A stretch of 64,000 nucleotides of DNA from an uncultured Staphylococcaceae bacterium (GTDB lineage: Bacteria > Bacillota_I > Bacilli_A > RFN20 > CAG-826): NCBI GenBank assembly GCA_964392865.1, contig CAYMRJ010000001.1:7037-71036 (forward strand), written 5' to 3'. A program made the translations under genes and the position numbers. The notes beneath the pieces were generated by a model, which saw only the letters and a list, made by a program, of their open reading frames with translations, searched no databases and was not told the DNA's origin. Below are positions 50,341 through 58,485 of this stretch, in pieces. Numbering within the stretch: position 1 is the stretch's first letter; each line of letters opens with the position of its first letter.

Positions 50341-50368
50341 GAGGATTGGATCTTAAGATCCTATCCTC
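50341..50368 (+). other. 28-nt near-perfect palindrome (13-bp stem) followed by a T-run; orphan terminator-like hairpin or operator
   Basis: GAGGATtGGATCTTAAGATCCtATCCTC followed by TTTTCCCTTT. No plus-strand gene lies upstream of it. Confidence 0.4.
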
Positions 50369-50413
50369 TTTTCCCTTTAAAAGGCCCTGTTTTCGGGCTA
50401 TGATACGGCGCTT

Positions 50414-52309
50414 ATGAAATCGAAAATCCTCCATAAATCGCTCGCGGCCGTCGCCCTTTTGGGGGCTTTGGCCTTAACTTCCTGCGGAGAAACCGATAGC
50501 GAAGAGAGCGGAGATTCCTCTTCCTCTTCCTATAGCTTCCCGACCTATAGCATCCCCGAAGAAAGCGACGAGACGCTCTCCTCGGTCGGGGCCTATCTCA
50601 CGATCGAAAACCAATACATCTCGGTCAATACCGCCTTCCTCGATAGCGCTTCCCCCTACGTCGAGTTCTATGACGGAAGCCATATCGCCGAAGTGACCGA
50701 TGAAGCCTCCTATGAGCTGACCAACGTCACCAATGGCGGGACCTACACCGCGACCGAGGCTCTGGATGAAGGCCTTTATACCGCGACGGCCTCCTATACC
50801 TACGGGAATACGACCTATGTCTCTTCTTCCCGCTACTTTGCCGTCGAACCTTATCCGGCCGAAGAGGATGCCGGCTATACCGAAACCGATCCCGCCTATG
50901 CCTTCGACGAAACCAACGTCATGAACTGCTTCTACATCGAAGGAGCGGGTCCGACGGTCGGCGAGGTCAAATACCTCGTCGTCCCCCTCTACTTCCAAGG
51001 CGTCGATTCCTGGAGCGCGGATGAACTCTCGATCCTCGAAGACATCTATGTCGGCGAGGACAACGTGGGCAACGGCACCTTCTATAGCGTCCAAGAATAT
51101 TACGCCGAAAGCTCTTACGGGCGCCTCAACCTCGAGTTCGATATCGCCGAACCCTTCCAGATGCCGATGACGGTGGCCCAATACAACCGCCTCAACAACA
51201 ACTACTACGATTACATCTACGAACTCGAAGATGCCTTCATCGAAGAATTCGTCGAAGGGCGCGGCTATGACCTAAGCGACTACGATAGCGACGGCGACGG
51301 CTACGTCGACGGCATCCAGTTCGTCTACAAGGCCGATCGGATAGACGACGATCTCTTCTGGAACTTCACAGAATTCTTCGATAGTTATAACGCCAACGGG
51401 GTTTCTTTTAACGGCACCAGGATGGCGGCTCCGGCCCTCTATGTCTGGGCCAACTACGATTGGCTCGTCTATTACGGATACGGCGATAGCCATTCCCTCA
51501 TCCACGAAACCGGCCATATGCTCGGGATCGACGACTACTACGACTACCAAGGCCGGGAGGCCCCGGCCGGCGGCTCTACCATGATGGATCTCAATGTCGG
51601 GGACCTCGATTCCTTCAGCAAGATGCTCCTTGGCTGGAGCGAACCCTATGTCATCGACGGCAGCAGTGACCACTTCACCATCACCCTTTCGCCTTTCGAA
51701 GAAAGCGGCGATTTCATCCTTCTCCCCGATATCGACGGAAGCGGCTATAACGGCACCCCCTTCGACGAGTATCTGCTCCTTAGCTACTACACGCCGACGG
51801 GACTGAACGAACCCGATAGCGATGGCTACGTGGAATACGCCGGCTATCCCGGCTACGGCCGCGGCGGCACCTACCAAAATGCCGGCCTCCAGGTCTACCA
51901 CGTCGATGCCAGGACCGGATTCATCTACGAAAACGGGTCCTACGAATACAAGGACATCACGGAAACTACCGAGTACGAGCGGAACACTACCCTCTACGTC
52001 ATGGCCAGCAATACTTCCTACTATTCGGCCGAGGAAGACTATCGCCTCATCGAAGCCATCTCGGCCGACGGGGTCGACCGCTTCGGCGAAGAATACCTCT
52101 ATAGCTACACCGGCGAAGATAGCGTCCTCTTCGGCACCGGGGATTACCATGGCGGCGATTCCTTCACGCGGGCCGGTTTCACCGACTGCTTCCCCGAAGG
52201 CTATCTCCTCAATGACGGCGAGGATATCGATTACTCCTTCCGGGTCCTAGATATGGACGAAGAAGGGATCACCATCCGCTTCGACCGCAACGGTTCTTCT
52301 GCCATTTGA
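50414..52309 (+). CDS. Lipoprotein zinc metalloprotease, M6 (immune inhibitor A)-like, copy 1
   Basis: Lipobox ALTSC. HExxH site LIHETGHMLGIDDYY. Upstream block SVQEYYAESSYGRLNLEF is typical of the M6 domain. TTTAAA-17-TATGAT-9-ATG promoter context. Confidence 0.8.
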   Translation: MKSKILHKSLAAVALLGALALTSCGETDSEESGDSSSSSYSFPTYSIPEESDETLSSVGAYLTIENQYISVNTAFLDSASPYVEFYDGSHIAEVTDEASYELTNVTNGGTYTATEALDEGLYTATASYTYGNTTYVSSSRYFAVEPYPAEEDAGYTETDPAYAFDETNVMNCFYIEGAGPTVGEVKYLVVPLYFQGVDSWSADELSILEDIYVGEDNVGNGTFYSVQEYYAESSYGRLNLEFDIAEPFQMPMTVAQYNRLNNNYYDYIYELEDAFIEEFVEGRGYDLSDYDSDGDGYVDGIQFVYKADRIDDDLFWNFTEFFDSYNANGVSFNGTRMAAPALYVWANYDWLVYYGYGDSHSLIHETGHMLGIDDYYDYQGREAPAGGSTMMDLNVGDLDSFSKMLLGWSEPYVIDGSSDHFTITLSPFEESGDFILLPDIDGSGYNGTPFDEYLLLSYYTPTGLNEPDSDGYVEYAGYPGYGRGGTYQNAGLQVYHVDARTGFIYENGSYEYKDITETTEYERNTTLYVMASNTSYYSAEEDYRLIEAISADGVDRFGEEYLYSYTGEDSVLFGTGDYHGGDSFTRAGFTDCFPEGYLLNDGEDIDYSFRVLDMDEEGITIRFDRNGSSAI

Positions 52310-52514
52310 TAATTAATCCAATTTCCGAATCGGGCTTAAATCCGATTTCCCAGATGGGATTTTTCAATGATGGCGCTTGCATTTTTCACCCATCCCTGAA
52401 AAACATCGGGCGGAACGGAACGAATTTAATTCATCCAAATCGCTAAATTAACGATTGACATAAAATCCCCTTCCCTTAGGCTTTTGCCGTTTTAGAAAGA
52501 AAGGAGCATTAGCC

Positions 52515-56434: not shown

Positions 56435-56456
56435 GCCGATTGGCGAGGATTGAAAA

Positions 56457-56486
56457 GGGACCCCTCTAGGGGCCCCTTTCTTTTTG
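56457..56486 (+). terminator. Intrinsic terminator after 55094..56434
   Basis: GGGACCCC-tcta-GGGGCCCC (one mismatch) followed by TTTCTTTTTG. Confidence 0.65.
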
Positions 56487-56526
56487 CTTTGAAAATCCCT
56501 TTCCTAATGCCATGATAGAGCGCTTT

Positions 56527-58485
56527 ATGAAAAACGTTTTAACCAAAACATATACGCTGCTAGGCCTCCTGGGGGCCTTCGCCCTAGCCTCCTGCGGTTC
56601 CATTTCGATCGCGGACAGCAGCAGCGAAGACGAAGAACCCTCTTCTTCCCTGGAAAGCGAAGATTCATCCTCCGAGAGCGAGGAATCTTCTTCTTCGGGT
56701 TCTTCGACCTCGAGCAATTCCACTTACGAGATTCCGAACGATAGCGAGGATAGCGACGACGAAGAACTAACCGTGGGCATCTATCTGACGGTCGAAAACG
56801 AGTACATCTCGGCCAACACGGCCTTCCTCGATAGCGCTTCTCCCTATGTCGAGTATTACAACGGCTTCCGCATGAGCGATGTCACTAGCCAAGCGACCTT
56901 CGAACTCGAAAACATCACCTACGGCGGCACCTATAGCGGCACCGAACCACTAGACGAGGGCCTATATACCGTCACGGCGACCTACACCGCCGGAAGGAAT
57001 ACCTATACTTCCAAATCCAAGTACGTCGCCGTCGAATTCTACGAAGCCGAGGAAAATGCCGGCTACAAAGTGATCGATCCCGAATTCACCTTGGACAAGG
57101 ATTACCGCCTTTCGGTCTTCGGCCTCGAAGGGACGAGCCCCTGCGTGGGTTCCCCGAAGTTCTTGGTCGTCCCCATTTCCTTTAGCAATGTGAGCGATTG
57201 GACCGAAGATGAACTGGAAGATCTGTATGACGTCTATATCGCCGATGATTTCGTCGACGAAGGCGGCTTCTTCAGCCTCCACGAGTACTACTACGAGAGT
57301 TCCTACGGAAAGCTCGATATGGAGATCGAAATCGCCGATCCATACCAGCTGCCCATCTCGACCGATACCTTCGAAGGCTACGGAAGCAATTCCAACTGCA
57401 TGAGCAGGCTCTGCGATTACTTCGTCGAGGAGTTCACGGAAGAGCGCGGCTACGACTTCGATGATTACGATAGCGACGGGAACGGCTACATCGACGGCAT
57501 CCACTTCATCTACAAGACCAACAAAACCGTCGGATACGGCATCTGGTGGAACTACACGAGCTACTTCGATTTCAATGCCAATGGCGTCACGACCGACGAG
57601 GGCGAAAGCATGGCGGCTCCCTGCACCTACTTCTTCAGCGCCTATGCCTCGATGGATAGCTACGGCTATCCCGATAGCCATACCATCATCCACGAGACCG
57701 GCCACATGCTCGGACTTGACGACTACTACTCCTACGACTACAACGAAGGCCCGGCCGGCGGAGCCCTCATGATGGATCTCAATATCGGAGACCAAGATCC
57801 CTATAGCAAGATGCTTTTGGGCTGGACGAATCCCTATGTCATCGATGGAAGTAGCGATCACTTCACCATTACCCTCAAGCCTTTCGAGAGCAGCGGCGAG
57901 TTCATTCTCCTCCCCGATATCGATGAGGGCGGCTATAACGGGACGCCTTTCGATGAGTATCTGCTTCTTAGCTACTACACGCCGACCGGTCTCAACGAAC
58001 CCGATAGCGACGGATACGAGGAATGGGCCGGATATGAGGGCTACGGCCGGGGCGGGACCTATGAGCATGCCGGCCTCCAGGTCTACCACGTCGATGCGCG
58101 GACCGGGGTCTATTACGTCCGTGGAGGGTACGAATACATCGACGTCACCGAAGCCACCGACTATTACATGGACTATCTTTCCCCCTTGGCCAGCAATACA
58201 GCGTCGTACTCGGCCGAAAGGAACAACCGCCTGATCGAGGCCGTCTCGGCCGACGGGGTCGACCGTTTCGATACGTCTAGCTACTACTCCTACGTCGGCG
58301 AGGACACCATCCTCTTTGGAACCGAAGACTACCACGGCGGCGACGCCTATACCCCGGCCGGCTTCCAAAGCACGATGCCAGAGGGGCTGACCTTCAATAG
58401 CGGCGAAGACATCGACTATGCCTTCTCCGTCCTTTCGATGGACGAAGAGAGCATCACCATCCGCTTCGACCGCAATGGCGCTTAA
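56527..58485 (+). CDS. Lipoprotein zinc metalloprotease, M6-like, copy 2
   Basis: Start at ATG 56527 (MKNVLTK), chosen by homology of the promoter/start context with copy 1 (CATGATagagcgctttATG vs TATGATacggcgcttATG). Lipobox ALASC, Ser/Glu-rich linker, IIHETGHMLGLDDYY. Confidence 0.8.
   Translation: MKNVLTKTYTLLGLLGAFALASCGSISIADSSSEDEEPSSSLESEDSSSESEESSSSGSSTSSNSTYEIPNDSEDSDDEELTVGIYLTVENEYISANTAFLDSASPYVEYYNGFRMSDVTSQATFELENITYGGTYSGTEPLDEGLYTVTATYTAGRNTYTSKSKYVAVEFYEAEENAGYKVIDPEFTLDKDYRLSVFGLEGTSPCVGSPKFLVVPISFSNVSDWTEDELEDLYDVYIADDFVDEGGFFSLHEYYYESSYGKLDMEIEIADPYQLPISTDTFEGYGSNSNCMSRLCDYFVEEFTEERGYDFDDYDSDGNGYIDGIHFIYKTNKTVGYGIWWNYTSYFDFNANGVTTDEGESMAAPCTYFFSAYASMDSYGYPDSHTIIHETGHMLGLDDYYSYDYNEGPAGGALMMDLNIGDQDPYSKMLLGWTNPYVIDGSSDHFTITLKPFESSGEFILLPDIDEGGYNGTPFDEYLLLSYYTPTGLNEPDSDGYEEWAGYEGYGRGGTYEHAGLQVYHVDARTGVYYVRGGYEYIDVTEATDYYMDYLSPLASNTASYSAERNNRLIEAVSADGVDRFDTSSYYSYVGEDTILFGTEDYHGGDAYTPAGFQSTMPEGLTFNSGEDIDYAFSVLSMDEESITIRFDRNGA

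Follow-up and report, generated by a model that had tools for sequence, protein, structure and literature searches.

Predicted M6-like lipoprotein metalloproteases and an uncharacterized protein pair between spx and trpS in an uncultured RFN20 bacterium

The proteolytic system of lactococci is composed of PrtP, a subtilisin-like serine protease, PrtM, a PrsA-like foldase and lipoprotein that matures the proteinase PrtP, and the transporter Opp. LolA and LprG, which belong to one open beta-barrel superfamily with LolB, LppX, RseB and GerS of Clostridioides difficile, are classically lipid-binding. M6 peptidases, such as InhA of the Bacillus cereus group and PrtV of Vibrio cholerae, are exported proteins with a TIGR03296 domain, in which an HExxH zinc site is followed by GxxD. 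In mycoplasmas, immunoglobulins are captured and cleaved by the MIB-MIP system, in which MIP is a serine protease (Arfi et al., 2016, per PMC6712165). The locus compared with these systems here is located in a 64-kb window, the whole stretch of DNA analyzed, from an uncultured Staphylococcaceae bacterium (GTDB RFN20/CAG-826; GCA_964392865.1, contig CAYMRJ010000001.1, positions 7,037–71,036; 54% GC). Four plus-strand genes lie between spx and trpS in this window, and they encode protease A, an 855-amino acid (aa) protein, a 446-aa lipoprotein and protease B. In a first-pass annotation, the two proteases were described as bracketing a pair of surface proteins, with a possible role against host defence and a possible analogy to MIB-MIP.

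The anatomy of the locus is real and uncharacterized, and nothing found here shows a dedicated binder-plus-protease machine. The region is probably a variable surface-protein slot in an uncultured member of the gut Bacilli with a probably small genome. Tentatively, it may be understood as a peptide-harvesting surface protease locus to which a lineage-specific accessory complex has been added, the secreted 855-aa protein being tethered by the 446-aa lipoprotein and binding a ligand; we prefer this explanation with some reserve. The widely conserved neighbors of the protease family are a family of large lipoproteins, called 574-like below, and Opp genes, and they point to peptide nutrition rather than to immune evasion. 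The 855/446 pair has few close homologs, and the equivalent slot of a related locus, L006, contains a protease alone; therefore, the pair appears to be accessory.

According to this explanation, the core component of the slot would be a lipid-anchored, M6-like zinc metalloprotease that was duplicated recently with its promoter, and both copies would start apparently without a leader, each from a sigma-70-like promoter of its own. Most likely, the proteases cut extracellular proteins, either dietary or host-derived, into peptides for uptake, an activity and a range of substrates that are suggested by the family context. The 855/446 proteins would be a lineage-restricted accessory pair produced in coupled amounts: the 446-aa lipoprotein would tether its secreted 855-aa paralog at the cell surface, and together they would bind either a protein partner or a ligand of hydrophobic or amphipathic nature. 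Co-location, and probably co-expression, would link the pair to the proteases, with no obligate partnership.

Layout of the slot

The features of the slot are as follows (positions in the window).

49775–50260, minus strand: spx/ArsC-family gene, the left border of the slot, divergent from protease A; the syntenic gene of L001 has PF03960 (ArsC)
50341–50368, plus strand: hairpin with a U-run upstream of protease A (ΔG −15.9 kcal/mol, z −4.06, 0/200 shuffles as stable)
50376–50404, plus strand: promoter-like TTTAAA-17-TATGAT, 9 nt to the ATG, without a Shine-Dalgarno sequence; leaderless-like layout, homologous to the upstream region of protease B
50414–52309, plus strand: protease A, a 631-aa lipoprotein, putative M6-like zinc metalloprotease (lipobox LTSC; TIGR03296 at residues 215–423)
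52310–52514, plus strand: intergenic region between protease A and the 855-aa gene, with weak structure (fold z −0.09)
52515–55082, plus strand: 855-aa secreted protein, whose signal peptide has no Cys (no lipobox)
55094–56434, plus strand: 446-aa lipoprotein (lipobox LVAC), translationally coupled to the 855-aa gene
56457–56485, plus strand: intrinsic-terminator-like, GC-rich hairpin with a T-run 3′ of the 446-aa gene (ΔG −21.8 kcal/mol, z only −1.66, 12/200 shuffles as stable)
56489–56516, plus strand: promoter-like TTGAAA-16-CATGAT with an upstream TG, 10 nt to the ATG, without a Shine-Dalgarno sequence
56527–58485, plus strand: protease B, a 652-aa lipoprotein, putative M6-like zinc metalloprotease (lipobox LASC; TIGR03296 at residues 232–450)
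58504–59487, plus strand: trpS, the right border of the slot; the syntenic gene of L001 has PF00579

The start of protease B is set at 56527 because all homologs begin at its MK, while the mechanical start of the open reading frame (ORF) is 56512. The flanks are conserved, with the genes for RNase J, Maf, EIIB, CYTH and spx on the left and those for trpS, HAD, PGM and RluD on the right, and within the same flanks the content of the slot varies: A-855-446-B in the window, 849-420-574-protease in L001, a single protease in L006 and four proteases in L008. In L003, the third genome with close homologs of the pair, 855-like, 446-like and 574-like genes are followed by two proteases. The same small minus-strand ORF is also found 5′ of the protease in most loci.

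The protease family and its neighbors

Proteases A and B are full-length paralogs with 61% identity (358/590 residues), and both the shared identical blocks and the lipoboxes reported for them in the first-pass annotation are present. The zinc site is formed by H364, E365, H368 and D374 in protease A (nt 51503–51535) and by H389, E390, H393 and D399 in protease B (nt 57691–57723), and the pattern HExxHxxGxxD is invariant, first in 5 and then in 30 aligned members of the family. TIGR03296, the M6 domain model of NCBIfam, matches protease A with 73.9 bits (E 1.9e-20) and protease B with 84 bits (E 1.6e-23), both scores being under its curated cut-off of 110.8. The same model matches all of the 30 sampled family members (best E 2.5e-28). 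At E ≤ 1, Pfam Peptidase_M6 (PF05547) gives no match in A or B, and it matches four of the 30 members (best E 1.3e-8). Hence the M6-like character proposed earlier holds for the zinc site and for similarity to the NCBIfam model, but not at the level of its cut-off or of the Pfam family. The sole PDB sequence match of the proteases is to a zinc site of the snapalysin type, HETGHxLGLxDxY. A nanobody match in the same search was dismissed as spurious.

On these sequence features, we place the proteases in a subfamily of the M6-type metalloproteases that is divergent and lipid-anchored, and we do not regard them as InhA orthologs. They share the exported nature of InhA and PrtV but are anchored by a lipobox instead of being freely secreted, no InhA-type accessory domains were found in them by Pfam, and their family occurs in non-pathogenic gut metagenome-assembled genomes (MAGs). 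No annotation covers their beta-rich N-terminal domain or the last ~200 residues, and literature searches on RFN20/Enteromonas lipoproteins and on M6 lipoproteins gave nothing specific to this family.

The family was scanned in one genome per GTDB species, which gave 239 relatives, and the best 80 loci were described for taxonomy. Nearly all of these best 80 come from uncultured Bacilli of the gut or from “Mollicutes” MAGs; Candidatus Enteromonas, Alloenteromonas and Onthovivens are among them. Candidatus Enteromonas belongs to the GTDB order RFN20 and has genomes of ~1.2 Mb with up to 57% GC (PMC8035907). The MAGs with the protease family come from gut samples of humans, chickens, ruminants and horses, none of them from a cultured organism, and several give more than one contig with a family protease, indicating multiple copies. 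Tandem arrays of four proteases in L008 (9269–16320), of three in L073 (9917–14646) and of three in L083 (9218–15115) are independent of the A/B duplication in the window, so the copy number has expanded several times; two tandem proteases are found in several other loci.

The most conserved partner of the protease is the 574-like family, with the 574-aa gene in L001 as its representative. The members are lipoproteins of 620–760 aa; in at least 23 loci among L009–L048 (for example, L013 12309–14429 and L021 12126–14066), they are encoded directly 3′ of the protease, and their only recognizable part is an N-terminal Big_2/intimin-like Ig domain. No gene of this family was found within the 64-kb window by tblastn. 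Opp genes are also recurrent neighbors. Among 82 loci of the protease family, an OppA-like SBP_bac_5 lipoprotein of ~870–950 aa is present in 31, mostly ~0.25–1 kb from the protease and in three cases at 4–7 kb, and an OppC-like permease is present in 27. The Opp-linked loci are among L007–L048, L028, L039 and L045 (e.g., L013 1562–9011 and L028 1731–14274), and their Opp neighbors carry SBP_bac_5, OppC_N/BPD_transp_1 and ABC_tran/oligo_HPY domains in Pfam. In L028, two proteases are inserted in the opp cluster itself, between the ATPase genes and the SBP gene, all on one strand.

Furthermore, many families of large lipoproteins are densely represented at the protease loci. In L011, L017, L018 and L034, an unannotated protein of ~440–460 aa, a lipoprotein in most of them, is encoded 3′ of the protease-574 pair, and the same islands (e.g., L018 14566–19119) contain a ~1056-aa leucine-rich-repeat protein of the BspA type (LRR_5 + Flg_new).

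The linkage of a surface protease family to Opp in many relatives, with an accessory lipoprotein gene adjacent, is reminiscent of the lactococcal PrtP/PrtM/Opp system, and a role in feeding an auxotrophic cell is plausible in both. The two differ in that metalloproteases are found here while PrtP is a serine protease, in that PrtM is PrsA-like, and in that the window has no Opp genes.

The similarity to MIB-MIP is of another kind. Here too, a gene for a large surface protein adjoins a gene for a surface protease, copies are tandem or duplicated, and the hosts are, or resemble, genome-reduced Mollicutes-like Bacilli. Metalloproteases with HExxH stand here in place of the serine protease MIP, however, the pairing is not seen throughout the protease and 855 families, and no likeness of the 855/446 proteins to MIB or protein M appeared in Pfam, NCBIfam, the PDB sequence search or the listed top 50 Foldseek matches. 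Membership in the MIB-MIP system is thus not borne out by either the protease class or MIB homology, and as an analogy of function the comparison is weakly supported.

A dedicated capture-and-cleave function, in which the 855/446 proteins would bind a host protein (immunoglobulin, mucin or antimicrobial protein) and pass it to the adjacent metalloprotease as an analogue of MIB-MIP, is improbable. The recurrent pairing of a protease with a large 574-like lipoprotein argues for it, as do the several independent expansions of protease copies, which would be expected of host-interaction genes. But the partner varies by lineage, since the 574 family has no detectable relationship to 855 and is absent from the window; the proteases of L006 and L008 occupy the equivalent slot with no partner; and, besides MIP being a serine protease (PMC6712165), the pair resembles neither MIB nor protein M nor immunoglobulin-binding folds in the searches named above. 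Also improbable is a broader form of the idea, in which the protease and its neighboring large lipoproteins (574-like mostly, LolA-like 855/446 here) would be a new kind of modular capture-and-cleave surface system of RFN20-type gut Bacilli that could, for example, strip protein from host or dietary lipoproteins or from immunoglobulins. If so, LolA-like domains would take up lipid or hold the substrate, and both Opp and lipid uptake would be fed in a cell with minimal biosynthesis.

As for the origin of the two protease copies, the most similar nucleotide stretch between them (~51728–51920 vs. 57916–58110) is 84–87% identical; similarity in about this stretch had been noted in the first-pass annotation. 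Identical codons are used at ~0.7 of conserved residues in this stretch, the same as elsewhere in both genes, and the high similarity is, on this codon comparison, attributed to purifying selection; recent gene conversion between A and B was ruled out because identical-codon use is no higher there. In a neighbor-joining tree, A and B are sisters in 100/100 bootstraps, with the proteases of L001 and L006 as the neighboring clade, and the L008 copies group among themselves. This sister relationship, as far as the tree can tell, marks the bracketing as a recent, lineage-specific duplication. L001 and L006 each have a single protease, whose positional ortholog is protease B, next to trpS; protease A, next to spx, is the new copy. 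As a conserved design, the bracketing is not supported, considering that A and B are sisters within one lineage and that comparable slots hold one protease (L006) or four (L008).

The duplication probably included the promoter region, as had been proposed from the similar layout 5′ of both genes. The 47 nt 5′ of the two protease ATGs align without gaps at 32/47 positions with a score of 24, compared with 13.6 ± 2.2 in the shuffle control, where 3 of 2000 shuffles reach 24, and this homology suggests that promoter and gene were copied together. Across the region, promoter-like sites show no enrichment (4 observed, 5.0 expected). The hairpin 5′ of protease A aligns in register with the terminator 5′ of protease B, and the proposed hairpin, T-run and promoter are indeed present before each protease; the correction to be made is that the hairpin of A does not directly follow a plus-strand gene, spx being divergent. 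Further to the left, the convergent genes for CYTH (plus strand, ending at 49778) and spx (minus strand, ending at 49775) share 4 nt, so that no terminator fits between them, and the stable hairpin and U-run at 50341–50375 might stop CYTH transcripts running antisense through spx.

In both protease genes and in trpS, the ATG follows a −10-like hexamer at a distance of 9–10 nt, and a Shine-Dalgarno sequence is missing (50399–50416, 56511–56529 and 58466–58506; ~15620–15652 in L001). Their mRNAs may therefore be leaderless. Strong Shine-Dalgarno sites, on the other hand, precede the 855-aa and 446-aa genes. An Rfam scan found no T-box leader 5′ of trpS.

The 855/446 pair

The 855-aa gene is preceded by AAAGGAG at 52500–52506, 8 nt 5′ of its ATG, and this Shine-Dalgarno sequence is the only element conserved upstream between the window and L001. 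TTGACA at 52455 was considered as its promoter and rejected, since no suitable −10 element accompanies it and L001 shows no conservation of the region. With weak structure and no clear promoter in the intergenic region, co-transcription of protease A with the 855/446 genes is possible, as read from the sequence. The coupling of the two middle genes proposed earlier was confirmed: AAGGAG of the 446-aa gene (55081–55086) overlaps the stop codon of the 855-aa gene, and the gap between the genes is 11 nt.

As a further correction to the first-pass annotation, the two middle proteins are related to each other. The broad 855-family profile aligns through its columns 1–505 with the whole 446 family at 99.5% probability (hhalign, E 1.2e-22), and a tblastn match also connects the 446-aa protein to the 855 family. 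By this profile alignment, the 446-aa lipoprotein is a paralog of the 855 family cut down to its first ~505 residues (N-terminal ~60%). Homology of the 574 family to 855/446 was considered as well and left unsupported, since hhalign aligned only signal peptides, or 60 columns with a probability of 79%.

Close homologs of these proteins are rare. Among 5.8 billion protein clusters, two others were found for the 855-aa protein and one for the 446-aa protein, and close homologs of the pair come from about four sources only. A profile search for the 855 family in 1.84 billion representatives gave 26 proteins at E ≤ 0.001, mostly lipoproteins of 740–870 aa, and no relatives turned up when JGI metagenomes were scanned with the alignment of close 855 homologs. 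The word-index protein search is unreliable for such low-complexity acidic proteins, and it overlooked the homolog of the 446-aa protein in L001, which has 45% identity. No match was obtained for the 855-aa or the 446-aa protein in Pfam or NCBIfam, for any of 22 wider members of the 855 family in Pfam (LolA, LppX_LprAFG and MucB_RseB included), or for the 855 family in the PDB sequence search. The earlier description of the middle proteins as domain-less is thus right for Pfam and NCBIfam, though beta-rich modules are predicted in their structures.

AlphaFold models were obtained for the 855-aa protein (predicted local distance difference test, pLDDT, 78.6; predicted template modeling score, pTM, 0.68) and the 446-aa protein (pLDDT 79.8, pTM 0.75), with only 22–25 sequences in the underlying alignments. 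In both models, acidic disordered N-terminal tethers are followed by repeated modules of a helix and a long antiparallel sheet; the 855-aa protein is predicted to have three beta-rich modules (~42–283, 291–492 and 511–701) and an alpha/beta C-terminal domain (710–855). Sequence repeats among these four domains were not detected. In a 948-aa relative, P0024, the C-terminal alpha/beta domain of the 855-aa protein occurs in approximately five tandem copies with the motif PTSW...E...IPYLY...GY, so this domain seems, from its sequence, to be an independent, repeatable module.

Foldseek against the PDB gave, for both models, a probability of 1.00 to LolA (4ki3, 7z6w and 8cgm) and LprG (3mh8 and 3mha), and also to LolB, RseB and ependymin-type open beta-barrels. 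The likeness to LolA/LprG is weak, with a target template modeling (TM) score of 0.36–0.48 and a root-mean-square deviation of 7–13 Å, and it falls somewhere within the chain; the whole 855-aa chain has no analogue in the PDB (query TM ≤ 0.14). On these matches, neither protein is an ordinary solute binder or enzyme, so the pair escapes that one of the refuting outcomes named in the first-pass annotation. A LolA/LprG-type fold can therefore be assigned to the pair only tentatively, on predicted models. The 446-aa protein is a lipoprotein, as are LprG and GerS. Membership in the superfamily is not seen at the sequence level, and the 855-aa protein differs from it further by fusing several beta-rich modules and an extra C-terminal domain in one chain. 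Binding of immunoglobulin or mucin by the middle proteins is not suggested by these matches, in which only the weak LolA/LprG-type similarity was found. The 855/446 proteins are best regarded as an uncharacterized family with no Pfam coverage, whose predicted fold weakly resembles a known one.

Whether the pair travels with the protease depends on the distance considered. All three genomes with close homologs of both proteins keep the pair beside a protease in one same-strand cluster, although 855/446-type proteins of these genomes are only ~45% identical; in another source, P0006, the contig is too short to judge adjacency. For distant members of the 855 family, six contexts with flanks of at least 5 kb were available (L085, L087, L089, L092, L094 and L095), and five of these have no family protease within 8–10 kb. 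In the remaining one, L092, the protease is 5.9 kb off and on the opposite strand. Other neighbors in these contexts are tandem 855-family paralogs, e.g., in L092 and L094, or other large lipoproteins. The co-occurrence expected in the first-pass annotation thus holds for close orthologs, and at large the family is mostly found away from the protease, a pattern that the first-pass annotation itself had named as speaking against its reading. In L095 (8465–13186), a distant 855-family lipoprotein gene lies between genes for a 510-aa protein and an Abhydrolase_3/BD-FAE esterase, and genes for a serpin and a sigma-70 family protein follow at a distance of a few kb; no other context hints at a role related to lipids or esters.

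These contexts bear on the rival explanations in different ways. For dedicated capture and cleavage, the cluster retained in three of three genomes is favorable, and LolA-like lipoproteins can partner hydrolases, as GerS does with CwlD (bioRxiv 10.1101/2025.01.13.632879), but the five distant contexts lacking a protease count against it. It is also conceivable, though rather unlikely, that there is no functional link at all: the slot would be a hotspot for surface lipoproteins, and the 855/446 proteins would scavenge lipid or another hydrophobic ligand beside a multi-copy protease. Such a picture agrees with the abundance of the protease family (239 relatives, several MAGs with more than one contig), with the crowding of its loci by large lipoproteins of various families, with the tandem paralogs in L092 and L094 and the esterase in L095, and with the classically lipid-binding nature of the LolA/LprG-type fold predicted for the pair. 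It sits less well with same-strand clustering at only ~45% identity, with the intergenic region 5′ of the 855-aa gene, where neither a clear terminator nor a clear promoter is seen and co-transcription with protease A is thus possible, and with the Lys/Arg-poor, Tyr-rich composition common to all proteins of the locus.

Or the 855/446 proteins may be a maturation factor, chaperone or regulator that keeps the proteases latent or activates them, like PrtM for PrtP or GerS for CwlD. Precedents exist in PrtM/PrtP and in the activation of a hydrolase by a LolA-like lipoprotein (GerS-CwlD; bioRxiv 10.1101/2025.01.13.632879), and the two genes are adjacent and coupled. Most family proteases, including the closest relative in L006, however, have no 855/446 homolog nearby, close homologs of the pair are nearly absent from databases, and 855 aa in four domains is large for a dedicated chaperone. 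This role is very unlikely.

Several observations weigh against peptide harvesting with an accessory pair as well. The M6 scores of A and B are below the cut-off and the Pfam model misses them. Neither OppA-like nor OppC-like ORFs are present in the 64-kb window, and most of the Opp-linked loci form one syntenic clade, so that adjacency to Opp may partly reflect shared descent. The LolA/LprG likeness is weak and comes from models with shallow alignments. Finally, the adjacency in three of three genomes could mean a tighter functional link between pair and protease than that proposed.

Composition and other observations

The composition of the locus proteins was examined for the window (50414–58485) and for homologs in L001 (10001–17560) and L003 (741–9861). 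Lys and Arg together make up 2.6–5.5% of every secreted locus protein and its homologs, compared with 11–16% in ten cytoplasmic proteins of the window. The secreted proteins are also Tyr-rich (up to 10.9%) and acidic. As a shared adaptation of surface proteins, the low Lys and Arg content speaks for the preferred explanation. The depletion of Lys and Arg may be an adaptation to trypsin-rich gut contents.

Three uncharacterized surface-protein families are defined by this locus and its relatives, namely the M6-like proteases, their 574-like partner and the 855 family, and they are candidate determinants of how these gut Bacilli feed on the host or interact with it. Proteases that supply peptides would be a target for strategies of cultivation; proteases that act on host proteins together with their neighbors would represent a new commensal host-interaction system.

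Long antisense ORFs of 292–647 aa run over the four genes, at 52662–54605, 56962–58632 and 51272–52150 on the minus strand. No homologs of them were found, and with their Arg/Gly/Val-rich translations they look like by-products of codon composition, not genes. Elsewhere in the window, a 526-aa ORF with no Pfam match at E ≤ 1e-4 is located at 36147–37727 on the plus strand, directly 3′ of an AMP-binding (acyl-CoA-ligase-like) gene.

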